A DNA stretch of 54,773 nucleotides from an archaeon (GTDB taxonomy: Archaea > Nanobdellota > Nanobdellia > Woesearchaeales > UBA11576): the NCBI GenBank assembly GCA_020052935.1, contig JAGVOD010000112.1, positions 1 to 54,773 of the forward strand. Reading direction: 5' to 3'. Every line of letters begins with the position of its first letter. The stretch's first letter is position 1. The notes below the pieces were generated by a model. The model did not search any database. It was not told the origin of the DNA and was given only the letters and a program-made list of their open reading frames with translations. This document shows, one piece after another, positions 5,423 through 53,492 of the stretch. A program made the translations under genes and the position numbers.

Positions 5423-5947
5423 ATGAAAAAAACCGGATTCATACACGTACTGACTGGCAATGGTGGCGGGAAGACAACGTCTGCACTGGGCGTAGCGATG
5501 CGTAGCGTCGGACAGGGCCACCGCGTCGTGGTCGTGCAGTTCATGAAAGGACGCACAGACATCGGCGAAGTAAAGATACAGAAGAAGCTCGGCGGCGACT
5601 ACACAGTGTACCAGTTCGGCACAAAGAAATTCGTGAACCTGAAGAAACCATCGCAGCAAGATGTCGAGCTTGCCAATGAGGCATTGGGATTCGCGCGCGA
5701 GGAGATACTTGAGAAAAGCCCACCAGAACTGCTGATTCTCGACGAGATAAACCTTGCAGCAGCGATAGGGCTGATAGAGACGGACAAAGCCGTGGAAATG
5801 CTGCGCAAGGCACCGCGCGGAGTAGACATCTACCTCACAGGAAGACGAGCTCCAAAGGCTTTCATCAACATCGCAGACTACGTGACTGTGGTTGAGGACA
5901 AGAAAAGAGTCAGGCTGGTGTCTGCGAGAAGAGGGATAGATTACTAG
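5423..5947 (+). CDS. cobA: ATP:cob(I)alamin (corrinoid) adenosyltransferase, CobA/CobO/BtuR family
   Basis: MKKTGFIHVLTGNGGGKTTSALGVAMRSVGQGHRVVVVQFMKG matches the CobA P-loop and QFxKG block. I start at Met43 of the track ORF (5423) because the upstream 42 codons run through the repeat element. Confidence 0.85.
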   Translation: MKKTGFIHVLTGNGGGKTTSALGVAMRSVGQGHRVVVVQFMKGRTDIGEVKIQKKLGGDYTVYQFGTKKFVNLKKPSQQDVELANEALGFAREEILEKSPPELLILDEINLAAAIGLIETDKAVEMLRKAPRGVDIYLTGRRAPKAFINIADYVTVVEDKKRVRLVSARRGIDY

Positions 5948-6333: not shown

Positions 6334-7176
6334 ATGGATAACGGTAATGCGCTCGTTGTATTCCAAGGCAAGAAAATAAGGCGAAAATGGTTTAACGATG
6401 AGTGGTGGTTTTCTGTAGTTGACATAATATGGGCAGTAACACAGACAGACAGAGCCAGAAAGTATTGGTCTGACCTCAAAACAAGGCTTACTGAAGAGGG
6501 TTTTGAGTTGTCCGCAAAAATCGGACAACTGAAATTAGTATCTACTGATGGCAAATCCTACCTTACGGATTGCGTTAATACTAAGAATGCTTTCAGGATA
6601 ATCCAGTCTATTCCTTCAAAGAATGCAGAGCCATTCAAACAGTGGCTTGCGCAGGTAGGTTATGATAGGGTGCAGGAAATAGAAAACCCTGAACTTGCCC
6701 AAAAGCGGATGAAGGAGATTTACAAGGCGAAAGGATATTCTGACGAGTGGATTGAAAAACGAGTTAGGGGCATAGCCGTAAGGCAGGAGCTTACTGGTGA
6801 GTGGAACAAAAGGGGTGTGAAAGAGGACAGGGAGTATGCCATCCTAACGAATGAGATAAGCAAGGCGACATTTGGCAAGACTGTTGAGGAATACAAGAAC
6901 TTCAAGGGACTGAAAAAAGAGAACCTGCGAGACCATATGGATGACTTGGAGCTGATTTTCACAATGCTTGGTGAAGCATCCACAACAAGGATAGCAAAAG
7001 ATAAAGATGCTCGAGGGTTTGTTGAAAATAAGGGAGCTGCAAAGGAAGGAGGGACAGTTGCAGGAGTGGCAAGAAAAGAACTTGAACAGAGAAGCATCCG
7101 GAAAGTATCCACCCCAGAGAACTATCTTTCTCAACCTGAGAAGAAGAAACGGTTGGAAGATGCGCGTAAGAAGTAA
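6334..7176 (+). CDS. Bro-N domain protein with DinD-like (DNA-damage-inducible protein D / antirepressor-like) C-terminal region
   Basis: N-terminus FQGKKIRRKWFNDEWWFSVVDIIWAV is Bro-N-like. The C-terminal ENLRDHMDDLELIFTMLGEASTT block resembles DinD. The gene is visibly more AT-rich than its neighbours. Confidence 0.65.
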   Translation: MDNGNALVVFQGKKIRRKWFNDEWWFSVVDIIWAVTQTDRARKYWSDLKTRLTEEGFELSAKIGQLKLVSTDGKSYLTDCVNTKNAFRIIQSIPSKNAEPFKQWLAQVGYDRVQEIENPELAQKRMKEIYKAKGYSDEWIEKRVRGIAVRQELTGEWNKRGVKEDREYAILTNEISKATFGKTVEEYKNFKGLKKENLRDHMDDLELIFTMLGEASTTRIAKDKDARGFVENKGAAKEGGTVAGVARKELEQRSIRKVSTPENYLSQPEKKKRLEDARKK

Positions 7177-14440: not shown

Positions 14441-15461
14441 ATGAATAGAGACAGGGAAACCATGGCTGAAGTATATTACTACAAAGATGCAGAGACCATG
14501 TTTCTTGCTAAATTGGAATCAGAGATTAAGAATACGTTTACCGGCTGTAAGAAGATAGCGGTCAAGCTACACTTCGGAGAGCCAGGCAACAAGACAGCAT
14601 TCAAGCCAGAAGACATAGCGCCGATTGCTGCCGTATTGAAGAAGCTCGGCATTGAGTTCTTTCTTTATGACACTTCGGTATCGTATGACAGCCCGAGAAA
14701 CAACACCGAAGGCTACAAACATGTGGCGCTGGAAAAAGGCTGGGGAAAGATCGGCGAAGTGGTGATTGATGGGGGCTTTGTCAAAGTCAAGATGAAGAAC
14801 CTCACTCACGAAGTCGGCAAGCCGCTGGCTGACGCTGATGGCGTGCTTGTTGTGAGCCACTTCAAAGGCCATGTCTGCTGTGGGTTCGGCGGAGCCATAA
14901 AGAACCTTGGCATGGGCGCATTGTCACCTAAATCAAAGCAGGCCATACATGATGGCGGAAGGGTGAAATCATGATGGCGGAAGGGTGAAATACGTCGGCG
15001 GCTGCACGCAATGCAAAACCTGCGAAAAGGTCTGCCCGCTCAACGGCATAAAAGTCACAGACAAGCCCGAGTTCAACCTATGCTACGGCTGCTCGAACTG
15101 CGCCTACTTCTGCCCTGCAGGCGCGATAAAGCCGAATCTCGAATACTTCGACGTACTGCTCGCAGAAGGCGCGGGTGCTGCGCAGAGCAAGTTCAAGAGA
15201 CAGTATTATGTGACTTTCCTGAAGAATATAACCAAGGAATGCGATTGCGAATCAGACCCTAAAGGGATAATAGCTAAGGACAAAGGCGTGCTGCTGAGCA
15301 ATGACATCGTCGCCATAGACAAGGCTGCGTATGATGTCATAACGTCCAAAGGCACGGATGATGTATTCCTCAAGCACAACAAGAAGACAGGGCTTGAACA
15401 CGTGAAGGCTGCTGAGAAGATGGGGATGGGAAAATCAGCGTATATTCTTGTAGAGGGGTGA
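14441..15461 (+). pseudogene. DUF362/COG2768-type Fe-S protein gene split into two ORFs (14441-14974, 14985-15461) by a 22-bp tandem duplication
   Basis: The upstream ORF has KLHFGEPGN..LYDTSVSY..SHFKGHVCCGFGGAIKNLGMG. The downstream ORF has CTQCKTCEKVCP and CSNCAYFCP ferredoxin motifs. Deleting one 22-bp copy fuses them in frame (..AIHDGGRVKYVGGCTQC..). Confidence 0.6.
14948..14991 (+). repeat. perfect 22-bp tandem duplication CATGATGGCGGAAGGGTGAAAT x2
   Basis: 14948-14969 and 14970-14991 are identical. The length is not a multiple of 3. Confidence 0.95.
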
Positions 15462-15463
15462 GC

Positions 15464-16009
15464 ATGGCGAAGAAGAAACTATTGCTGCACACCTGCTGCG
15501 CGCCATGCAGCACGCACTGCGTCAAGGAACTGCTTGATGATTATGATGTGACTATGTATTTCTACAACCCCAACATACACCCATACGCAGAGTATGACAA
15601 GCGGCTGGAGAACGCGCTGAAAGTCGGCAAGGAGCTCGGTGTGCCTGTAATAGAAGCAGAGTACGACCCCGAAAGATGGGTGGAGCTCATCGCCGGATTC
15701 GAGGAAGAGCCAGAAGGCGGCAAACGATGCAGGATATGCTTCTCGATGAGGCTCGCCAGGACAGCGGAGTATGCTGCTGCGAATGGGTTTGATGCTTTTA
15801 CGACAACAATGACAATATCGCCGCATAAGGACGAGAAGACAATCAATGAGATTGGTGCAGAGCTTGCGAAGAAGCACAAAGTCGCGTGGGTGCATTCAGA
15901 CTTCAAGAAGAAAGACGGCTTCAAGAAATCAGGCGAGATTAGCAAGAAGATGGGATTGTACAGGCAGAATTATTGCGGGTGCTTCTATTCGGTGAGGACT
16001 GAACAATAG
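15464..16009 (+). CDS. queH: epoxyqueuosine reductase QueH (DUF208)
   Basis: LLLHTCCAPCS, YFYNPNIHP, RCRICFSMRL, FTTTMTISPHK and LYRQNYCGCFYS blocks. ATG 15464 lies 6 nt after GAGGGG. The track ORF starts at GTG 15458. Confidence 0.85.
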   Translation: MAKKKLLLHTCCAPCSTHCVKELLDDYDVTMYFYNPNIHPYAEYDKRLENALKVGKELGVPVIEAEYDPERWVELIAGFEEEPEGGKRCRICFSMRLARTAEYAAANGFDAFTTTMTISPHKDEKTINEIGAELAKKHKVAWVHSDFKKKDGFKKSGEISKKMGLYRQNYCGCFYSVRTEQ

Positions 16010-16517: not shown

Positions 16518-17519
16518 TCAGTTTGTGAATATCATCATCGCATCGCCAAAAGAATAGAACCTATATCTCTCTTTTACTGCAATCTCGTATGCGTGCATCA
16601 CGTTGTCGAGGCCGATGAGGGCTGCGATGAGCATGATCAATGTTGATTTCGGGAGATGGAAGTTCGTTATCATGATGTCTGGCTTCAGCTTCCACTTGTA
16701 GCCTGGATAGATGAATATGCTGGTCGACTTCTTTGCTGCGTGGATGATGCCCATGTCATCTGCTGCGGACTCGAGGCTGCGGAGAGAGGTTGTGCCGACG
16801 ACGATGAGGCGGCCTTTCCTGTTGTTGATTTTCTCTGCTGCTTCCTCTGTTATCTCGAACCATTCCTCATGCATCACGTGCTTCTCTATGTCTTCTGTCT
16901 TAACAGGAAGGAAAGTGCCGTAAGAGACATGCAATGTGACCTTGACTATCTCTACGCCGAGACGTTCTACGTCGCGCAGCAGTTCTGGAGTGAAGTGGAA
17001 GCCTGCTGTCGGCGCTGCGATGCTGCCTGACTTCTTCGCGAACACTGTCTGGTACTGCTCTCTACTCGCTTTCTTCTTGATGTAAGGCGGAAGAGGCATC
17101 TCGCCGATCTTCTGCAATGCTGCATCAAGGTCTTCTGTGTTGAACATCACTTCAAACAATCCGTCGCTGCCGCCTGTGACCTTGGCTTTGATATCGTTCG
17201 AGAATACGAACTCTGTGCCTGGCTTTATCTTGTTGGTCTTGATCATGCACTCGTACAACCTTGGTCCGAGCTTCTTCGAGACCAAGAATTCTGCAGGAGA
17301 GCCCGTTGTCTTCCTGCCTAAAAGCTTGACCGGCTCCACTTTCGTGTCGTTCAGGACAAGCACGTCGCCTTTCTTCAGATAAGATATGATATCTTTGAAG
17401 GTCTTGTGCTCAATCTTGCTTCCTTTTACAATCATAAGCCTGCTACTATCTCTTGGATCAGCAGGTTCTTGCGCAATCAGCTCCTTCGGAAGATGATAGT
17501 CGAACTGGGAAAGCTTCAT
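16518..17519 (-). CDS. queA: S-adenosylmethionine:tRNA ribosyltransferase-isomerase
   Basis: MKLSQFDYHLPKELIAQEPADPRDSSRLMIV start, PLPPYIK, AAPTAGFHFT, and full-length collinearity with the QueA family. Confidence 0.9.
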   Translation of the reverse strand: MKLSQFDYHLPKELIAQEPADPRDSSRLMIVKGSKIEHKTFKDIISYLKKGDVLVLNDTKVEPVKLLGRKTTGSPAEFLVSKKLGPRLYECMIKTNKIKPGTEFVFSNDIKAKVTGGSDGLFEVMFNTEDLDAALQKIGEMPLPPYIKKKASREQYQTVFAKKSGSIAAPTAGFHFTPELLRDVERLGVEIVKVTLHVSYGTFLPVKTEDIEKHVMHEEWFEITEEAAEKINNRKGRLIVVGTTSLRSLESAADDMGIIHAAKKSTSIFIYPGYKWKLKPDIMITNFHLPKSTLIMLIAALIGLDNVMHAYEIAVKERYRFYSFGDAMMIFTN

Positions 17520-17566: not shown

Positions 17567-17796
17567 GCAGTGCCACGCCATGCTACGCTTTGCTTCGCAA
17601 AACCGAGGCCTGGCCGCAAAGCCACGCCCTACTTCGCTCGCCAAGCGAGCTCTCGTGCCGCCACGCCCGCATGAATATTTTTTACGAAGTTAATCCAAAA
17701 AATTCCAATTATTTCAGTTACTAAATTTGCCGCAATAGCGGGCTGATTAGGCGGCAACGGTCGTGGCTTTGCTCGAGTTATTGGCGGTGGCACTGC
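17567..17796 (+). repeat. scaffold element, subfamily 1, copy 3 (core 17616-17772 plus an extra outer stem)
   Basis: Core helix GCAAAGCCACG (17616-17626) / CGTGGCTTTGC (17762-17772). Also CCCTACTTCGC (17627-17637), hairpin GCTCGC-CAA-GCGAGC and the AT-rich core. Outer stem GCAGTGCCACGCCA (17567-17580) / TGGCGGTGGCACTGC (17782-17796). Confidence 0.75.
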
Positions 17797-18231: not shown

Positions 18232-18693
18232 CTAAATCCGCCTTCTCGACTCGTGGAAAAGGGCGTAGCTGGTCTCGGTACGCTTGATACCAGGGACTTT
18301 CCTTATCTTGTCCAGGACCAACGTGCTGAGCGTCCTTATGCTCTCAAGCCTGATCTTCAGGATCAAGTCAAACCTGCCTGTGACAAAAGAGACATCCTCC
18401 ACCTCAGGGATCTTCCATATGATCTTTGACAGGCTCTCGGTGTTGAGGCCGGCCTTCTCCATCTCATTCATGTCGTATGTCATAAGGATATAGACGACGA
18501 CATCCCTGTGGACTGTCTTATAATCGACGTCAATCGTATACGCCCTGATGACCTTGTTGTCCTCAAGCCTCTTCAGCCTGTTGTGCACTGTCGTGACAGG
18601 GATGCCTGTCTGCTTAGAGAGCTGATACGTCGAGAGACGGCTGTTCTTGTTCAGCGTCTGCAGGATCCTGAGGTCTTTGTCATCCAAATCCAT
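18232..18693 (-). CDS. Lrp/AsnC family transcriptional regulator
   Basis: MDLDDKDLRILQTLNKNSRLSTYQLSKQTGIPVTTVHNRLKRLEDNKVI HTH plus a RAM-like C-terminus. I start at Met35 of the track ORF (18693). Confidence 0.85.
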   Translation of the reverse strand: MDLDDKDLRILQTLNKNSRLSTYQLSKQTGIPVTTVHNRLKRLEDNKVIRAYTIDVDYKTVHRDVVVYILMTYDMNEMEKAGLNTESLSKIIWKIPEVEDVSFVTGRFDLILKIRLESIRTLSTLVLDKIRKVPGIKRTETSYALFHESRRRI

Positions 18694-18899
18694 GCTAATT
18701 ATGGAATATTTATTCCAAAATATATAAATTTTGTGATTATAATTGAATGATTGTGTCATGGGGCTGGAAAAAGATTTATTAAGCTTGGAAACCATATGAT
18801 TGTGTTGAGGGAAGATTCCGAAAAAAGATGTCTTGCGCAGCAGCCAGGCCAGGCTGCCAAAAGACCACTAAGTCTATACTTGATGTGATGTAGTCCAAG

Positions 18900-19724
18900 A
18901 TGGATAACCAGACACTAAAAGACGGACTTGCAACATTCAACCTTTCTAAGACAGAGGCAGAACTCGTCCACGAACTCCTCAACAGAGGGACTACACGCAT
19001 AGGCACGCTCATCAAGGCATGCAACAAGCACCGCGGCACAGTCTACAACTGCATGAACCAGCTCATAGCGAAAGGCTTCGTGTCAGTATCCCCTGCTGGC
19101 GGCGCAACCCACTACTCTATAAACGAAGATGCATTCTTGGGAGTGATAGAACAGCACAGGCACAAGATAGATAGCATGGCCCAGTGCGTCCAGGAGATAA
19201 GGAAGATCAAGCAGCTCACAGATACCATGGCCCAGAAGCCAGATACGCCGCTGAGGATGAGCTACGGTCCGCAGTCATTCAAGAACTTCTTCACACGCCT
19301 GCTCAACGAGAATGCAGCAAAAGACGCGACCTACCTGACGTACTGCAACGGCGGCGAGATAAGCAGGTCATTCGGAGACGACTACTACAAGTTCACGCAG
19401 GACCTGAAGACGCAGCTCGGCTCTGACTCCCGGATACTGCTGAATGCAGAGACGAGGACGCAGCCTTACTCCAAATACATACGAGGCAACATAAAATGGG
19501 TGAGGGGAGTGCGCTTCCCGAGCCAATGCTTTGTCCACAACAAGAAATACTACATGGTGGATTGGTCATCACAGCCTATGGTCGTCATAGAGATAGAGAG
19601 CAAGGAGATGGCAGCTTCGCAGCAAGAGTTCTTTGATTCGCTATGGAAGAACAAGGCTATATCTGCAGAAGAGAGGCAGGAGATGGGCGGTGTCGTCGCG
19701 GTGTGCGATGACAAAACTTTATAA
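18900..19724 (+). CDS. TrmB-like transcriptional regulator (divergent)
   Basis: N-terminal wHTH LSKTEAELVHELLNRGTTRIGTLIKACNKHRGTVYNCMNQLIAKGFV. It is divergent from the Lrp gene. Confidence 0.55.
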   Translation: MDNQTLKDGLATFNLSKTEAELVHELLNRGTTRIGTLIKACNKHRGTVYNCMNQLIAKGFVSVSPAGGATHYSINEDAFLGVIEQHRHKIDSMAQCVQEIRKIKQLTDTMAQKPDTPLRMSYGPQSFKNFFTRLLNENAAKDATYLTYCNGGEISRSFGDDYYKFTQDLKTQLGSDSRILLNAETRTQPYSKYIRGNIKWVRGVRFPSQCFVHNKKYYMVDWSSQPMVVIEIESKEMAASQQEFFDSLWKNKAISAEERQEMGGVVAVCDDKTL

Positions 19725-19766
19725 CCGCATCACGCTTTAACATCCACGATTACGGGAGGTGGGAGC

Positions 19767-22700
19767 TTGACAAAAATGAAACTAGCTTTAGCTATATCCA
19801 TACTGGTCTTTCTTTTTGCCATCATGGCGTTCTCTGCTTCTGCGACAGAACAGCGTGATCAATACCAGACGACCAGCACCAACGAGGTCGGCATAGAGTA
19901 CGGCAAGTACGCCAAGCAGTCGTTCGTCGCAGGGCTGGACGGCACGCTGACAAAAGTCCTACTCAAGCTCAGATGGAATGCTCCTGCAACCTGCGCCGCG
20001 GCATATGGATCAGGTTCGAGCTTCTGCAAGATAAAGGTCTATATCCAGGACAGCTCGGAGAGCAGCATCGGAACGAGGGCAGAGTACGACGCTAGCTATA
20101 TGGTAAGCTCTTCAGCCTGGTATGAATTCAGGCCTACAGGAGTGACTTTGGAGAGCGGCAGGACCTACTGGATACACGTCCAGACAGACTACCGCGACTC
20201 GACAGGCGGGGGCCTGAAATGGGGAGTAACTTCAAGCGACCTATACTCCCGAGGCGGATACAAGAGATATGATGGCGGAGTCATATCAAGCTCCTACGAC
20301 ACTGCATTCGAGACCTATATCGACGTGCCATCATGCACCACGACAGCTGGCTGGAAATGCAAGACAGACACACAACGCGGATACCAGAACTCTGACTGTA
20401 CATGGAGCAGCGTGACGAGCTGTGCTACTGGCCAGACATGCAGCGGAGCAGGAGTATGTGCTGCGCCTCTGCCGAACATGGATCTCGAGAGAGTGTACAC
20501 GACACCTGACACAGGAATAAGGCAAGGCACCTCAGTCATGTTCGTGGCTCAGTCGCAGAACAACGGCGTGACAGGATACTTCAAGACCACTTTCCAGCTC
20601 TACAACCCCTCAGGCACGCTGATGGCAAGCAACCCATACATCAGCAGGGCAGACGCAGGGACAGAGCCAAGCACCTACTGGACATACACAATACCCTCAT
20701 CGTGGGCTGATGGAAGATACACGTTTACAGCCACAATCACCAACTGCTCCTCACCAAGCACCTGCCAGCGCAGCATGATATTCAACGTCGGGACCGTGAC
20801 ATGCACAGCTAGCACAAGATGCGACGGCAGCTACCTCGTCACGACGAACACAGACTGCACAGAGACAAGGACACTATGCGTATCAGGATGCTCTTCAGGA
20901 AGATGCAGCGGACCTGATGTCTACATCTATGCATTCACGTTGCAGAATACATCTTATCGTGAACAATACAGCTATCTCCCTGGCGCAAGGATGATATTCA
21001 CTCCGTCGATAAAGAGCAGGAACGGCGTGTCAGGCAGCTATAATGCCTACTACAAGATCTATCAAGGCAGCACAGTCGTGGCGAGCAACTCAGCATCGAG
21101 GACTGCGCCCGCGATTGGCGGAGGCGACAATCCCTCTTGGACACACACCATACCCACAACCTGGTCAGGGACATACACAGCAGAGATGAAGGTAGACCAA
21201 TGCACCAGCGGGTGCAGCTGGAACAGGACATTCACCGTCGGAACGCCGTGCACGGACGCGGACGGCGACGGTTACTTCACAAGCTGCACACCTCTTGACT
21301 GCAACGACGCCAACCGGAACATCAATCCAGGAGCTGTGGAGGTGTGCGGCAATACCGTGGATGAGAACTGCGACGGGTCAGCGCCAGCATGCGTGCCGAC
21401 TGCGGCAAATTTCTCGCTGCTGAGCGTCTCGACGAAACTGGCGAGCGGCGTAGCAAAGACTACCTTCCTCACAACAGACAGGATCATGCTCGTCGACAGG
21501 ATACAGAACTACGGAGCGGCAGGAAACTACACCTGCTACTTCGATGTCTATAACTCTTCTGGAACGAATGTCTGGCCTACGACAAGCACCGCGTATCGGG
21601 CTCCGGGAAGCGCAGTAGATGTCTTCGCGCTCTTCGAGATACCTGATGAATGGAGAGGCACATACACCTTCACAGGCAGAGTGACGCCATGCAGTCCTAG
21701 CACCAACTGCCAGAAGTCCACGACATTCGTGGTGAACAGGGGGTGCATCGCCCAATACACCTGCCAGAACCTGACGCACAGGGCTTATCAGAACACAGAC
21801 TGCAGCATCTCTTGGCCGACGGCCTGCACCGCAGGAAGGGCGTGCAGCGCAGGGACCTGCGTCGCATGCACAGCATCGATGTGCGGAGCCAACGCAAGAT
21901 GCTCGACAACAGGACCTGGATGCCTGTGCAACGCGAACTACGCCAACGCCGACGGGAACTGGTCGAATGGGTGCGAGGTCAATCTGCTCACAGATACAGC
22001 TAACTGCGGAAGGGTCGGCAACGTGTGTGGACCTTTCCAGAGATGCACTTCCGGAACCTGTACAGACCTGTGCACACCATCGATGTGCGGGGCGAACGCA
22101 GGATGCTCTGGAGGAGGATGCGCGTGCAATGCGGATTATGCTAATGTTGACGGAATCTGGGATAATGGGTGTGAGATTGATCTCATGAGCAACCCTGACA
22201 ACTGTGGAACCACAGGCAATGCATGCTCTAGCGATGAGAGGTGCGTCTCAGGGGTTTGTGAAATCATGGACTTCAGCTCTATGATGGGTAAAGGAATAAT
22301 CATGGACCCTATATTCTTCGAGGAGATCGTCACCGCGCTCACAGCAGCAGGCAGAGTGAATATGTATTTCTTTGAAAACGAAAGCGAAAGGGATGCTGAG
22401 ACCCTTGCTGGTGCAGTTGCCGTGTCCCTGAAGAATGATTCATTAGACCTTGCAGAAATAGCAAGTGACGTATCTGACTTCTTAGGATACCCCATCGACA
22501 TTGCTGTCCACAACGACTTGATCGGCGACCACTTCTTCATGCAGGCGGTCCGGAGCGGTGAATATGCGATAATAGAGATTGACGGCCCGACCGATTTCAT
22601 CTTCGTGACTGACAAGAGGGCTGGCGCAAGTATTGCCGAAGCAGAGGGGTTGGCGGGAAATGCCAACAAGGTGTTGACTGCGGGCAATTACATTGCTTCG

Positions 22701-24242
22701 GGAGCGTTTGCAGTGCTTTTTGCATGGGATCACACATCTGGAGGGGGAGATGTGGATGTGCCCAAATTCGCGGTATACGCAGGGGCTAATTTCCTTGCAT
22801 ATGGGGTGCTGCCTCACATGGCTGTAGCACAGTTCATCAAGGTCACCAAGGATTTTGCTTTCGCGGTAGTAGGCCTAGACCCTAGCCAGATAACCTGTGA
22901 CATAACCTCGTTGAACCCTGCGGACCAAGCAGTCTGCACGTTCTGGCTCGCTAACGGCGTGATAGACACACTGACGGATGCTGAGTTACTGGCAGACACC
23001 ATCGATGGCGAATGTGGTATAATGAATGGCCAATTTCCTGTGTGCGTCGAAGGGATAGGCCAAGGCCTCCAGCTATTCTCGCACCCAATCCCCTTGATAA
23101 ACGACGTAACCTACACCATCAGCGGAGACAGGGCCAGGTTCACAGTGGATATCGAGGACTACAACCTCTTCGATGCGCCATTCGACAGCATATGGGTCGG
23201 AGCGACGATAGAGTGCGAAGGCTCTGAAGGATGCAACTATGACCTGCCACCGCAGGCGACGACGTTCAGCTTCAAAGAGCAGAAGGAGATGGTCTTCGAC
23301 TGGGACATACCTGAGACGTTCCTGCGCGAGAGGAACGTCACATTCGTCGTTAAGGTGTGGTACAACTGCCTCGAATGCACTAGCGATGCGCGCGATATGT
23401 ATGAGGCTGCATGTATGGGAGATGGCGTCACCCCAGATGTCATCATGTGTGACTACCTCACCAGATGCACTGCATCAGCGCTCTATACACAATGCAACCC
23501 TTCGGACGACAACGCCTATCGTTGTTACGGAGATAATCTTGACCAGATGCACTATGCATTGGCTGTCGAGAAGGTTGGGTTCAGGGTGCGCAATGAAGTA
23601 CCTATAATAAACAATGTGAGATGCGACTCCCCGACGCTTCTCGGCGTGGACTGCCCTAGCACCATCAACCTCAACGCAGGCGACAGGCTCGTGATGACAC
23701 TATACGCGAACGACATAGACGGAGACCACCTCGAGACCTCTTCAGCAGGCAGCGTCGGAACGACAAAAGAATGCACGAGCGCAGAAGGCTATGATGCCAT
23801 ATGCGACTTCACCCTGCAGACAGACGAGAGCATGGCTGGCGAGCAATGGCTAAGGCTCAATGTGATGGATGGATACAACCTTACTTCGCGCATCTACACC
23901 ATAAATGTCCTTGGTACGACACCACCCACGCCACCCGCACCCACCTACAACATAACACTGGTAGCGCCTACTGCTGGAGCATCGCTCGTGTATGGCACGC
24001 AGACATTCAGGTGGAACCAGGTCAGCGGCGTGACATATTACTACCTGAACCTGTACAACGCTGTGACAGGAGCATACTATTCCAGCATGCCTACTGCGGC
24101 ATCGACGTACTGCTCCGGCGGATTGTGCCAGAGAGCATATGCGCCTGCAAGAGGAAGCTATCTCTGGAACGTCACAGACGCAGGATGGTGGACGACCGGC
24201 GTGAGAAGATGGTCAGAGACGAGAAGGTTCAGTATTGTATAA
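19767..24242 (+). CDS. giant secreted/surface Cys-rich protein (1491 aa) with signal peptide and internal repeats
   Basis: Signal-like KLALAISILVFLFAIMAFSASA, with GGAGGTG 6 nt before TTG 19767 (alternative ATG at 19776). It has three CARDB-like modules of about 110 aa, a Cys/Asp metal-binding-type motif (CTDADGDGYF..CNDANRNINPGAVEVCGNTVDENCDG), and two tandem Cys-rich units of about 68 aa. Confidence 0.8.
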   Translation: MTKMKLALAISILVFLFAIMAFSASATEQRDQYQTTSTNEVGIEYGKYAKQSFVAGLDGTLTKVLLKLRWNAPATCAAAYGSGSSFCKIKVYIQDSSESSIGTRAEYDASYMVSSSAWYEFRPTGVTLESGRTYWIHVQTDYRDSTGGGLKWGVTSSDLYSRGGYKRYDGGVISSSYDTAFETYIDVPSCTTTAGWKCKTDTQRGYQNSDCTWSSVTSCATGQTCSGAGVCAAPLPNMDLERVYTTPDTGIRQGTSVMFVAQSQNNGVTGYFKTTFQLYNPSGTLMASNPYISRADAGTEPSTYWTYTIPSSWADGRYTFTATITNCSSPSTCQRSMIFNVGTVTCTASTRCDGSYLVTTNTDCTETRTLCVSGCSSGRCSGPDVYIYAFTLQNTSYREQYSYLPGARMIFTPSIKSRNGVSGSYNAYYKIYQGSTVVASNSASRTAPAIGGGDNPSWTHTIPTTWSGTYTAEMKVDQCTSGCSWNRTFTVGTPCTDADGDGYFTSCTPLDCNDANRNINPGAVEVCGNTVDENCDGSAPACVPTAANFSLLSVSTKLASGVAKTTFLTTDRIMLVDRIQNYGAAGNYTCYFDVYNSSGTNVWPTTSTAYRAPGSAVDVFALFEIPDEWRGTYTFTGRVTPCSPSTNCQKSTTFVVNRGCIAQYTCQNLTHRAYQNTDCSISWPTACTAGRACSAGTCVACTASMCGANARCSTTGPGCLCNANYANADGNWSNGCEVNLLTDTANCGRVGNVCGPFQRCTSGTCTDLCTPSMCGANAGCSGGGCACNADYANVDGIWDNGCEIDLMSNPDNCGTTGNACSSDERCVSGVCEIMDFSSMMGKGIIMDPIFFEEIVTALTAAGRVNMYFFENESERDAETLAGAVAVSLKNDSLDLAEIASDVSDFLGYPIDIAVHNDLIGDHFFMQAVRSGEYAIIEIDGPTDFIFVTDKRAGASIAEAEGLAGNANKVLTAGNYIASGAFAVLFAWDHTSGGGDVDVPKFAVYAGANFLAYGVLPHMAVAQFIKVTKDFAFAVVGLDPSQITCDITSLNPADQAVCTFWLANGVIDTLTDAELLADTIDGECGIMNGQFPVCVEGIGQGLQLFSHPIPLINDVTYTISGDRARFTVDIEDYNLFDAPFDSIWVGATIECEGSEGCNYDLPPQATTFSFKEQKEMVFDWDIPETFLRERNVTFVVKVWYNCLECTSDARDMYEAACMGDGVTPDVIMCDYLTRCTASALYTQCNPSDDNAYRCYGDNLDQMHYALAVEKVGFRVRNEVPIINNVRCDSPTLLGVDCPSTINLNAGDRLVMTLYANDIDGDHLETSSAGSVGTTKECTSAEGYDAICDFTLQTDESMAGEQWLRLNVMDGYNLTSRIYTINVLGTTPPTPPAPTYNITLVAPTAGASLVYGTQTFRWNQVSGVTYYYLNLYNAVTGAYYSSMPTAASTYCSGGLCQRAYAPARGSYLWNVTDAGWWTTGVRRWSETRRFSIV

Positions 24243-24259
24243 TCTTTTTATTAAATAAG

Positions 24260-24365
24260 TACGGCAGCCGGGACATTCGTGCTTTAAGCATTTCGAACCC
24301 GGGCACCCACCTTGGGAGGGTGAGATCCTTTAGCGCGCATAAGCGGACCGCTAGATGACTGCCGT
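24260..24365 (-). tRNA. tRNA-Gly (anticodon CCC) with two BHB-framed introns (17 nt in the D-loop at 20/21, 18 nt in the T-loop at 59/60); no encoded CCA
   Basis: The minus strand reads ACGGCAG UC AUCU AGCGGU [CCGCUUAUGCGCGCUAA] A GGAU C UCACC CUCCCAA GGUGG GUGC CCGGG UUCGAA [AUGCUUAAAGCACGAAUG] U CCCGG CUGCCGU A. After removing the inserts it is a 71-nt cloverleaf with U8, A14, G15-C48, G18G19, A21, U33, G53-C61 and T-loop UUCGAAU. Confidence 0.85.
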
Positions 24366-24447
24366 ATATTGCTGTTTCTATGTTCAGGGCCGTCTTAAAT
24401 AGTTTTTGGTCAAAATATTTAAAAGCGAGCTTGTCTAGCTTGCATCT

Positions 24448-25404
24448 ATGGCAGATGTACTACCCGGCATCAGGTATGTGATGCAAAACGCGGAACATGT
24501 GAGGATAAATGAGGATAAGATCAAGGAGTTCTGCAGCAAACTCGACCACAAGCATATAAAACACTGGATGACAGAAGCACCATTCGACCTGTCAAAGTTG
24601 AGCAATGATGATAAGCTGAACTTCTTGTTCATATTCAATTCAATAAGCTTCTCTTACTGGGGCAAGCCTAAATGGGCTATCGAATACGCGGACCAGCAAC
24701 TCGACGGGTCTTGGGCGATGATTGCATGCTTAGGCCGAGCCTTCGAGACAAATGCTGCAATGTTCAACCCGGAACATCTCGAGAAAATCCCTAAAGAAGA
24801 GTTCGCGCAGATACTTAAGGGAAACATCGAGATCCCTCTGCTCGAAGAGAGATGGAAGATCCTCAAGCAAGCAGCAGCCATACTCAATGACAGATTCGAA
24901 GGAGAGTTCAAGAATGTGATTGCACTGGCGAACGGAGACGCCCAAAAGCTGCTGGACCTGATAATAAACAATTTCCCTACATTTGAGGATGTGCGAATCT
25001 ACAAAGGCAAGAACATCCACTTCTACAAACGCGCTCAGCTGCTCGTCTCTGACATCTACCAGGCATTCAAAGGGAAGGGATATGGCAGATTGAAGAATAT
25101 AGACAAGCTGACAGCATGTGCAGACTACAAACTGCCCAAGATATTAAGACGGCTCGGCATCCTAGAATATGACACTCAACTTGCTAGTAAGATAGAGTCA
25201 AAAACACCACTGCCAGAAGGAAGTCCAGAGGAAGTCGAGATAAGGGCTGCGACGATATGGGCGACAGAGCTTATCAAGGAAGGACTGAAGAGCAAGCTGC
25301 CTCATGTCGATTCTATCCACATAAACGATCATCTGTGGCTCCTGAGCCAGAACAAGTCGCCTGATGACAAACCATATCACAGGACACGGACCACTTCTTA
25401 CTAG
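24448..25404 (+). CDS. DUF2419 / QNG1-like queuosine salvage protein (queuosine 5'-phosphate N-glycosylase/hydrolase family)
   Basis: FYKRAQLLVSDIYQAFKGKGYG..IDKLTACADYKLPKILRRLGILEY..PEGSPEEVEIRAATIWA closely parallels the conserved core of the DUF2419/C9orf64 family. A TATA-like ATATTTAAAA lies 28 nt upstream. Confidence 0.75.
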   Translation: MADVLPGIRYVMQNAEHVRINEDKIKEFCSKLDHKHIKHWMTEAPFDLSKLSNDDKLNFLFIFNSISFSYWGKPKWAIEYADQQLDGSWAMIACLGRAFETNAAMFNPEHLEKIPKEEFAQILKGNIEIPLLEERWKILKQAAAILNDRFEGEFKNVIALANGDAQKLLDLIINNFPTFEDVRIYKGKNIHFYKRAQLLVSDIYQAFKGKGYGRLKNIDKLTACADYKLPKILRRLGILEYDTQLASKIESKTPLPEGSPEEVEIRAATIWATELIKEGLKSKLPHVDSIHINDHLWLLSQNKSPDDKPYHRTRTTSY

Positions 25405-34508: not shown

Positions 34509-34645
34509 GCAGCGACAAAACCTGACTCGACTCGCTCACTGCCTTCGCGAGTCTCGTGATGCCAAGCGCTGCGTAACCAGTCGTGTCGAACAGTTCGACA
34601 TTTGCATTCAGCAGCGCAAACTGGCATCACCGGTTTTGTCGCTGC
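34509..34645. repeat. scaffold element, GC-rich subfamily 2 (copy d), rod-like
   Basis: Terminal helix GCAGCGACAAAACC (34509-34522) / GGTTTTGTCGCTGC (34632-34645). Side hairpin GACTCGC..GCGAGTC. Inner helices GTGATGCC/GGCATCAC and GCGCTGC/GCAGCGC. Apical hairpin GTCGAA-CAG-TTCGAC. Confidence 0.7.
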
Positions 34646-36226: not shown

Positions 36227-36389
36227 GGCTCTGTCCCAAGACTCGCTTCGCTCGGGCAGCGCCAGGTTCGGCTAAGTGATTATTCTGCTGAAAGCCCTGT
36301 CCCCCCGTAGGGGGCGACCCCCGACGACGGGCGCTATGTCATTGTAGAAAAGCCTCACAAAGGGCGCTGCCTCCTCTTGGGACAGAGCC
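36227..36389. mobile_element. MITE-like scaffold element (subfamily 2, copy a): 15-bp perfect TIR plus 9-bp flanking direct repeat
   Basis: TIR GGCTCTGTCCCAAGA (36227-36241) / TCTTGGGACAGAGCC (36375-36389). GGAACAGAT sits immediately outside both ends (36218-36226 and 36390-36398). Inner helix GGCAGCGCC (36255-36263) / GGCGCTGCC (36363-36371). Confidence 0.7.
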
Positions 36390-52481: not shown

Positions 52482-53492
52482 TCATGTGCTGAACTGCTGC
52501 TTGATGACTGATACTAATCCCGCTTCATCCTCTGCCTTCGCTATCTCACGGCGCTTGCCTGTCGCGTCACGGATGTCCTTGCAGAACCACATCGCATGCT
52601 GCTTCAGCTCGGTGAAGCGCTTTATCTTCTGCACCTTGTTGTACAATGCTATGAATTCAAGGATGAGCTTTCCTCGTTCAGCCTCTGTGAGCCTCGGAAG
52701 GAGCTTCTTGTGGTCTAAGAACTCATTGCACTTCCTGAAAAGCACAGGATTGCCCATCGCAGCGCGGCCAATCATCACGAAATCACAGCCTGTCTGGTCG
52801 AGCATCTTCCTCGCATCCTCTGGCTCGCGCACATCGCCGTTGCCTATCACAGGGATATTGACCTTATCCTTGACCTGCTTTATCGCAACCCAATTAGCTT
52901 TGCCTGCGTACTGCTGGTCCTTGGTGCGTCCGTGGACAGTTATTGCTGCAGCGCCGGCATCCTCTATGATCTTCGCCTGCTGCGTGTGGTTAAGGGACTG
53001 GGAATCCCAGCCGATACGGATCTTCGCTGTCACTGGCTTGTTTGTAGCTGACGCAACTGCATTGATTATCTTGGACATGCCCTCAGGATGCTTTGAGAAG
53101 TAAGCGCCCATCTTCTGGCCGAGGACGTCAGCGTCTGGACAGCCGAAGTTCAGGTCGATGATGTCTGCGTACTCTTCTATGTACTGCAACGACTCGACCA
53201 CTATCTTCGGGTCGCGGCCGATTATCTGCACTGCCAGCGGACGTTCATCCTTGATGAAATCTATCATGGTGTCGCGGTTCCTCTCACCTTTCACAAGGCC
53301 CATGCTGTGTATCATCTGAGAAAAGACAAGGCCTGCGCCGTATTCATGGCACATCAGCCTGAAAGCGGTGCAATTGACACCGAGAAGCGGAGCTAGCATC
53401 AGCTGGTTCGCGAGCTTGACATTGCCTATCTTGAGAGTATTCCCCTTCATACGTCCTATGCTGCATGTGGACTTAATAAATCTTTTCGGCAA
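52482..53492 (-). CDS. dus: tRNA-dihydrouridine synthase
   Basis: LMLAPLLGVNCTAFRLMCHEYGAGL, IDLNFGCPDADV and ITVHGRT blocks. The likely start is Met15 (53450). Confidence 0.85.
   Translation of the reverse strand: MPKRFIKSTCSIGRMKGNTLKIGNVKLANQLMLAPLLGVNCTAFRLMCHEYGAGLVFSQMIHSMGLVKGERNRDTMIDFIKDERPLAVQIIGRDPKIVVESLQYIEEYADIIDLNFGCPDADVLGQKMGAYFSKHPEGMSKIINAVASATNKPVTAKIRIGWDSQSLNHTQQAKIIEDAGAAAITVHGRTKDQQYAGKANWVAIKQVKDKVNIPVIGNGDVREPEDARKMLDQTGCDFVMIGRAAMGNPVLFRKCNEFLDHKKLLPRLTEAERGKLILEFIALYNKVQKIKRFTELKQHAMWFCKDIRDATGKRREIAKAEDEAGLVSVIKQQFST

Follow-up and report, generated by a model that had tools for sequence, protein, structure and literature searches.

A tRNA-Gly(CCC) gene, probably interrupted by two bulge-helix-bulge introns in the D-loop and the T-loop, in a Woesearchaeota-like archaeon

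Results

Genomic setting of the locus

The DNA analysed here, which we refer to as the window, is a stretch of 54,773 nt (assembly GCA_020052935.1, contig JAGVOD010000112.1). In a 205-nt gap between the end of a gene encoding a 1491-aa protein (24242, plus strand) and the start of a queuosine-salvage gene (24448, plus strand), the minus strand carries a sequence that reads as a tRNA-Gly(CCC) gene once two inserts are taken out (Table 1). A JGI metagenome contig of independent origin carries an identical locus.

The products of the window, which has a GC content of about 50%, include an archaeal histone, regulators of the TrmB and Lrp types and a DUF835/7TM protein. The homologues of its QueA protein with 60-90% identity are labelled Woesearchaeota or Nanoarchaeota. 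Moreover, the region at 3-18 kb, with the gene order RNR, CobA, AP endonuclease 2, CDP-alcohol transferase, PHP, EndoIII, DUF192, VIT1, QueH and QueA, is largely collinear with L030, a contig of a MAG labelled Candidatus Woesearchaeota (GCA_016929255.1). Based on the archaeal genes, the QueA homologues and the collinearity with L030, we therefore assign the host to a Woesearchaeota-like DPANN archaeon. The homologues of the queuosine-salvage protein show at most 65% identity and are split between DPANN archaea and CPR bacteria, which makes this protein unfit for synteny or fine taxonomy; hence, QueA was used.

Table 1. Positions of the tRNA-Gly(CCC) gene, its parts and its putative flanking signals in the window
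Feature	Position	Strand	Remarks
Complete tRNA-Gly(CCC) gene	24260..24365	-	106-nt precursor body, 71 nt when spliced; CCA not encoded; called by ARAGORN only with both inserts out
Exon 1 (tRNA positions 1-20)	24347..24365	-	acceptor 5' strand ACGGCAG, U8 C9, D-stem 5' strand AUCU, D-loop AGCGGU
Intron 1, CCGCUUAUGCGCGCUAA	24330..24346	-	17 nt, D-loop position 20/21, strict hBHBh'
Exon 2 (positions 21-59)	24292..24329	-	A21, D-stem 3' strand, anticodon arm, 4-nt variable region, T-stem 5' strand, T-loop UUCGAA
Anticodon CCC (positions 34-36)	24314..24316	-	in loop CUCCCAA
Intron 2, AUGCUUAAAGCACGAAUG	24274..24291	-	18 nt, T-loop position 59/60, strict hBHBh'
Exon 3 (positions 60-73)	24260..24273	-	U60, T-stem 3' strand CCCGG, acceptor 3' strand CUGCCGU, discriminator A73
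Putative promoter	24394..24407	-	BRE-like AAAAAC, then TATA-like TATTTAAG; -42 to -29 from tRNA position 1
Weak T-rich stretch TTATTT	24253..24258	-	possible transcription stop, just 3' of A73

Both inserts form a strict bulge-helix-bulge motif

Read on the minus strand from 24365 to 24260, the gene consists of the segments ACGGCAG UC AUCU AGCG GUC CGC UUAU GCG CGCU AAA GGAU C, followed by UCACC CUCCCAA GGUGG GUGC CCGGG UUCG AAA UGCU UAA AGCA CGAA UGU CCCGG CUGCCGU A. In the bulge-helix-bulge (BHB) motif of intron 1, the outer helix h is the D-stem (AUCU/GGAU), the central helix H is AGCG/CGCU, the bulges are GUC and AAA, and the inner helix h' (CGC/GCG) closes a UUAU loop. The motif of intron 2 is built on the T-stem, which serves as helix h (CCGGG/CCCGG); helix H is UUCG/CGAA, the bulges are AAA and UGU, and helix h' (UGCU/AGCA) closes a UAA loop. 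All pairs of H and h' in both motifs are Watson-Crick pairs. Each insert accordingly has the complete hBHBh' architecture, with two 3-nt bulges on opposite strands, a 4-bp helix between them, and an outer and an inner helix. A first-pass annotation, made from the letters alone, had given the sequence and coordinates of the locus and of both inserts, and the helices, bulges and loops on the D-arm and the T-arm, exactly as we find them. It had also spoken of non-canonical BHB introns, which holds for their positions but not for their motifs, as these are strict and canonical.

Cutting after the second nucleotide of each 3-nt bulge yields the D-loop AGCGGUA, the T-loop UUCGAAU and a 71-nt product, and the insertion sites 20/21 and 59/60 therefore follow from these restored loops. 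The restored D-loop carries A14, G15, G18, G19, U20 and A21. In the spliced 71-mer all 21 stem pairs are intact, as are the conserved nucleotides U8, A14, G18 G19, U33, U54 U55 C56 and A58. In archaea and eukaryotes, the glycine identity set comprises C35 and C36 of the anticodon, the pairs C2:G71 and G3:C70, and the discriminator A73. All of these can be read from the spliced sequence, as can the CUCCCAA anticodon loop that had been noted together with them at first reading, and each member of the identity set is invariant across 10 orthologues (see below). A less common trait is the pair A1:U72, which replaces the usual G1:C72 in the whole clade. With its three exons in collinear order and next to one another in a stretch of 106 nt, the gene is neither split nor permuted.

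The minimum free energy (MFE) fold of the 106-mer (-43.8 kcal/mol, z = -3.2) has the H helices, the bulges and the h' hairpins of both motifs. The full double-BHB cloverleaf comes to -37.2 kcal/mol; the gap of 6.6 kcal/mol to the MFE is due to the weak D-stem, which the MFE fold leaves out.

Detection of the gene and tests against chance

ARAGORN, applied to the unspliced DNA, found no tRNA anywhere in the 54.8-kb window, and Rfam gave no match at gathering thresholds in the window and none at E ≤ 10 in the region 24150-24480. As the introns interrupt the gene, the lack of a match on unspliced DNA is not evidence against a tRNA. Given the 71-mer spliced in silico, with or without flanks, ARAGORN called tRNA-Gly(CCC). 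The Rfam tRNA model (RF00005) scored the intronless orthologues at 59 bits versus a cutoff of 29, and this covariance score is used here as a proxy for the window's own spliced 71-mer.

The intron-bearing orthologues behave in the same way when they are presented unspliced. ARAGORN missed 6 of 7 and called only L016, in which the intron is at 37/38, and RF00005 missed every intron-bearing gene on which it was run (those of the window, L016, L019, L023, L027 and L029). Thus, the expectation of the first-pass annotation that default finders can miss such a gene was borne out, and ARAGORN, one of the checks that it had named, calls tRNA-Gly(CCC) on the spliced form and not on the locus itself.

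Loosely defined BHB candidates number 718 on the plus strand and 1052 on the minus strand, versus about 600-720 per strand in shuffled sequences; as the loose motif is common in shuffles too, its presence alone proves nothing. In an excision scan, each BHB candidate singly and each pair of nearby candidates was removed on both strands, and ARAGORN was run on every construct. Across the whole window one tRNA was obtained from 4437 constructs, and this was the product of the reported pair. Eight dinucleotide shuffles of the window gave no tRNA from 10,261 constructs. As a separate observation, loose BHB motifs are about 1.5 times commoner on the minus strand than on the plus strand or in shuffles, with no single hotspot; this excess is possibly an effect of composition or skew.

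Orthologues differ in intron content

An exact-pattern scan with the middle exon, covering one genome per species, identified seven loci in Woesearchaeota, Nanobdellati and similarly labelled MAGs, several of which are intronless and have the unusual A1:U72 acceptor in common. A gapped pattern run on metagenomes gave only four loci, none of them with a D-loop intron. A tblastn search with the window ORFs against the first tRNA-matched loci (L002-L012) found no genes in common; these loci served for comparison of the tRNA and gave no synteny. Orthologue contigs were reached through the QueA homologues with 60-90% identity, QueA being encoded 7 kb from the tRNA in the window. On the fetched contigs, the orthologous tRNA-Gly(CCC) was recovered in a queA / zinc-ribbon / histone neighbourhood matching that of the window. 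The contigs L013-L015 (QueA 90% identity) and L022 end before the tRNA position, and the comparison consequently does not extend to the closest relatives.

The intron content of the orthologues is listed in Table 2. Every orthologue spliced form analysed is 71 nt long and is called tRNA-Gly(CCC) by ARAGORN. The intronless relatives L008/L010 and L017 read AGCGGTA and TTCGAATCCCGG exactly across both predicted junctions, so that the claim that splicing restores a 71-nt tRNA-Gly(CCC) agrees with both the ARAGORN call and natural intronless sequences.

Table 2. Intron content of the window gene and related loci
Locus	Introns
Window	D-loop 17 nt + T-loop 18 nt
L017/L018	no introns
L019/L020	D-loop 19 nt + T-loop 23 nt
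L029	D-loop 41 nt
L027/L028	T-loop 80 nt
L023	37/38 (18 nt) + T-loop 42 nt
L016	37/38 (90 nt)
L032	T-loop 30 nt, relaxed motif
L004/L009	59/60, 13 nt
L003, about 2094-2310 (complement)	59/60 insert of ~108 nt

Site 20/21 is also occupied in L019 and L029, and site 59/60 in L019, L023, L027, L004/L009, L032 and L003. The two sites proposed at first reading are thus places at which orthologues carry introns of different sequence with mostly preserved pairing. In the T-loop intron, the window has the inner helix UGCU/AGCA, from which that of L019 (AGCC/GGCU) differs by two pairs changed on both sides; L023 has ACU/AGU. In L027, the exon change G57A is matched by a C-to-U change in the intron strand of the central helix H. 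The inner helix of the D-loop intron is CGC/GCG in both the window and L019, and CCA/UGG in L029. Some motifs of the relatives are relaxed: L004 is without an inner helix, L019 and L029 have one central-helix mismatch each, and the central helix of L032 is partial. Intron lengths range from 13 to about 108 nt among the orthologues, with the BHB core kept and the pairing mostly kept.

The exons behave differently. Exon 1 is identical or near-identical to that of the orthologues in a 10-sequence spliced alignment, in which the cloverleaf is 98.6% paired. Compensatory changes on both sides are seen at five pairs, among them 5:68 and 6:67 of the acceptor, by which exon 1 is connected to exon 3. 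In 500 shuffles no result as high was obtained, and slid registers drop to 23-44% paired. In summary, the spliced sequences form an archaeal tRNA-Gly cloverleaf with conserved tertiary nucleotides and covariation, and the exons are conserved while the introns vary in presence, length and sequence with their pairing mostly kept. At least six configurations occur in the clade: none, 20/21, 59/60, 20/21 + 59/60, 37/38, and 37/38 + 59/60. Judged from these sequences, the introns are evolutionarily labile, with none, one or two present at the three recurrent sites 20/21, 37/38 and 59/60.

Two cases deserve separate mention. L025/L026 and L030/L031 have an intronless tRNA-Gly(CCC) with the acceptor stem GCGCCAG on the opposite strand, and its orthology to the window gene is uncertain. 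In the Woesearchaeota tRNA-Gly(CCC) of L003, the T-stem is followed by CCGGTCC, which has lost its pairing with ACGGCAG, the 5' strand of the acceptor; this copy may be decayed, part of a split gene, or the result of an assembly problem.

Putative flanking expression signals

The motif AAAC(T)TTTTAAG/T is present in L019, L017, L016 and L023 at the same upstream distance as the putative promoter of the window gene, and the BRE/TATA-like motif is thus kept in the five closest orthologues, the window counted among them. The T-rich stretch downstream of the gene faces, in convergent orientation, the end of the 1491-aa gene (24242), and the orthologues have clearer T-runs at their ends. The promoter motif, the T-rich stretch and the lack of an encoded CCA would fit an archaeal tRNA gene that is expressed.

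Discussion

Interpretation and proposed maturation

In our interpretation, the locus is a tRNA-Gly(CCC) gene that functions in a Woesearchaeota-like DPANN archaeon and is interrupted by two protein-spliced introns of the EndA type, and from the sequence evidence we put the probability of this reading at about 0.9. The substrate geometry, the exact junctions, the conservation pattern and the covariation can be seen directly in the aligned sequences. Cleavage, ligation and expression of the precursor are what we infer from them.

Transcription would start from the BRE/TATA promoter about 30-40 nt upstream and would give a transcript made up of the 106-nt body with a short leader and trailer. In this precursor, the D-arm and the T-arm would each be extended by a 4-bp helix, in which the exon loop nucleotides AGCG and UUCG pair with the 3' parts of the introns, CGCU and CGAA, respectively. 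The extension helix lies between two 3-nt bulges and is topped by a short intron hairpin, an arrangement that is visible in the sequence and would present a strict BHB substrate. EndA would then cleave after the second nucleotide of each bulge, an RtcB-type ligase would join the three exons, and the ends of the spliced RNA would be processed. The predicted product is a 71-nt tRNA with the D-loop AGCGGUA, the T-loop UUCGAAU, the anticodon CCC, A1:U72, C2:G71, G3:C70 and A73, all of which appear in the spliced sequence. As no CCA is encoded, it would be added post-transcriptionally.

A Pfam scan of the 45 window ORFs found no tRNA-intron endonuclease (EndA) and no RtcB. Since both motifs are strict, the gene alone does not force a broad-specificity EndA, contrary to what the first-pass annotation took the intron positions to imply. 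An enzyme of this kind in the lineage is nevertheless plausible, as it would fit the relaxed motifs of the relatives L004, L019, L029 and L032 and the literature on DPANN archaea (PMC5829648). An alpha4-type EndA with an L3 loop has been reported for DPANN lineages, and several of the lineages with L3-loop EndAs show more tRNA gene disruption (PMC5829648).

Alternative explanations

The locus could be a decaying or silent tRNA pseudogene whose inserts are never removed, with GGG codons being read by another tRNA. According to the wobble rules, tRNA-Gly(UCC) can read GGG, which makes tRNA-Gly(CCC) dispensable in principle; as it is not strictly essential, purifying selection on it could be relaxed. 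Decay may also occur within the gene family, L003 having a T-loop insert together with a 3' acceptor strand that does not pair. However, in the window gene neither the 21 stem pairs nor the conserved loop nucleotides show any damage after excision, and both inserts are perfect BHB substrates placed for exact excision. Random insertion would not be expected to make two exact hBHBh' motifs, in line with the failure of the shuffles to yield a tRNA (0/10,261). Moreover, L019 retains both introns with changes that largely preserve pairing, and the promoter motif is conserved, and we consequently regard a pseudogene as unlikely. It is also conceivable that the tRNA is functional and that its inserts are not removed by EndA, being either retained as arm expansions or eliminated by another route. 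The absence of an EndA gene among the window ORFs and the reduced state of DPANN genomes would fit such a scenario, but retained inserts would destroy the contact between the D-loop and the T-loop (G18 G19 with U55 C56), and the architecture of the inserts is exactly that of an EndA substrate. To our knowledge, EndA is encoded by all known archaea. Intron-containing tRNAs have been listed in all known Archaea (PMC4033280). In addition, the variation in length from 13 to about 108 nt around a preserved BHB core is the pattern of a sequence that is excised, and on these grounds the scenario appears very unlikely to us.

At first sight, the locus also resembles a generic inverted-repeat element (MITE-like or a regulatory hairpin), in which case its tRNA-like fold would be a coincidence. 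Its 8-bp terminal repeat TACGGCAG/CTGCCGTA is superficially like the 14-15-bp repeats of three intergenic elements of the window (see below). This repeat, however, corresponds to the acceptor stem plus N-1:A73, the locus lacks a target-site duplication and any flanking direct repeat, and the 3' exon sequence occurs only once in the window. Furthermore, the interior becomes a complete cloverleaf after excision, the syntenic orthologues are ordinary tRNA genes that score 59 bits with RF00005, and there is no sequence similarity to the other elements of the window. We hold that such an origin of the fold is extremely improbable.

Comparison with known systems

Multi-intron tRNAs whose BHB introns lie at non-canonical positions are well known from Crenarchaeota, most of all Thermoproteales, and from N. 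equitans, M. kandleri, K. cryptofilum and ARMAN-1/2 (PMC4033280). In agreement with the statement of the first-pass annotation that introns of the 20/21 and 59/60 type occur in some archaea, M. kandleri tRNA-Glu has been described with a D-loop intron at 20b/21, and ARMAN-2 tRNA-Cys with one at 59/60 (PMC5829648).

The genes of Thermoproteales (Pyrobaculum, Caldivirga and Thermofilum), studied with SPLITS and tRNAscan-SE 2.0 (PMC4033280; PMC8450103), resemble the window gene in several respects: they have short protein-spliced introns outside the anticodon loop, their BHB is formed from exon loop nucleotides and the intron, they are invisible to standard finders, and their intron content differs between orthologues of related genomes. 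They differ in their host, a crenarchaeon instead of a Woesearchaeota-like DPANN archaeon, and in their motifs, which are relaxed, whereas both motifs of the window gene are strict hBHBh'. The pre-tRNA-Cys(GCA) of ARMAN-2 (Ca. Micrarchaeum), a substrate of the epsilon2 EndA (PMC3239211; PMC5829648), also belongs to a DPANN archaeon and is interrupted at 59/60 by a short intron that pairs with T-loop nucleotides. Its motif, however, is a relaxed hBH that needs a broad-specificity enzyme, in contrast to the strict hBHBh' in the T-loop of the window gene, and the isotypes are different. Like the window gene, Methanopyrus kandleri pre-tRNA-Glu(UUC) (PMC5829648) has two introns, of which the D-loop one is located immediately before position 21. 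In that case, the D-loop motif is a relaxed HBh' and the partner is a canonical 37/38 intron, as opposed to a 59/60 partner and two strict motifs in the window gene. Finally, canonical archaeal 37/38 introns have the same motif geometry and the same cut positions in the bulges, and presumably depend on the same enzymes. Introns of this type are present in the orthologues L016 and L023, whereas the window gene has an uninterrupted anticodon loop and carries its introns in the D-loop and the T-loop.

Genes of this kind have thus been described before in other archaea, and the current picture of archaeal tRNA splicing is unchanged. The window gene is a useful annotation case within established biology, and the orthologue series is a modest bonus. 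With respect to annotation, the locus indicates that a needed isoacceptor can be present and yet be hidden from ARAGORN and the Rfam model by two tiny introns. For the training of the BHB models in tRNAscan-SE 2.0, introns from Crenarchaeota/Euryarchaeota and Thaumarchaeota were used (PMC8450103). Incomplete tRNA sets for which a manual search is needed have been reported (PMC5829648). The sets of DPANN genomes assembled from metagenomes are often described as incomplete, and the locus is a concrete case of a hidden gene. For enzymology, two strict BHB motifs in the D- and T-loops would offer a clean natural substrate for the question whether position-independent cleavage requires the alpha4-type EndA with an L3 loop. 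In evolutionary terms, near relatives within the clade have alleles with and without an intron at three recurrent sites, and reviews have asked for such snapshots of intron gain and loss (PMC4033280).

Duplications of the 3' exon and the origin of the introns

In L029 (2312-2389) and L032 (about 5610-5710), a second copy of the 14-nt 3' exon TCCCGGCTGCCGTA (positions 60-73) lies 50-69 nt downstream of the tRNA. The repeated segment is exactly the 3' exon as set by the 59/60 site, the spacers that separate the copies in the two loci are mutually homologous, and the second copy is followed by a T-run terminator. The duplication was also considered as a large 59/60 intron and rejected, as no H helix or bulge geometry fits by eye. 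An integration (att) scar and an intermediate of intron gain are two possible readings of the duplication.

Seen more broadly, the clade may provide a before/after series of BHB intron gain and loss, in which the 59/60 introns would derive from integration or duplication events bounded at position 60, for example an att-site scar that later became a BHB. We offer this only as a tentative idea, with the odds somewhat against it. Viral contigs searched for the 3' part of the tRNA gave no match, so the integration idea is without direct support.

Other features of the window

Three strongly folding intergenic elements (36227-36389, 34509-34645 and 17616-17772) are 137-163 nt long, including terminal inverted repeats of 14-15 bp, and have MFEs of -59 to -82 kcal/mol; none has an Rfam match. 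The complementarity of the repeat pair is 93% in 17616-17772 and perfect in the other two. The three elements have a GAGCGAAGCGAG-like internal motif in common, and the direct repeat GGAACAGATG stands on either side of the element at 36227-36389, with the appearance of a target-site duplication (MITE-like).

The window contains a set of bacterial-type queuosine genes, encoding QueH, QueA and a queuosine-salvage protein (PF10343), plus a gene for a Dus-family dihydrouridine synthase (15458-16009, plus strand; 16518-17519, minus strand; 24448-25404, plus strand; 52482-53492, minus strand). Among Woesearchaeota/Nanoarchaeota MAGs, relatives of QueA with 60-90% identity occur widely. The tRNA is separated from the Zn-ribbon/queA region by a block of about 6 kb (18232-24242) that encodes Lrp/AsnC, TrmB and the 1491-aa protein, in which a MopE metal-binding motif is present. 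L023 and L032 also have the Lrp-MopE portion, with no TrmB annotated there. In L016, L017 and L019 the block is absent, and the tRNA is located directly upstream of the Zn-ribbon gene.

Finally, a gene for a Bro-N domain protein (6334-7176, plus strand) is located between cobA and the AP-endonuclease-2 gene, a position at which the collinear contigs L022 and L030 have no gene, which suggests a lineage-specific insertion that is possibly virus-derived.
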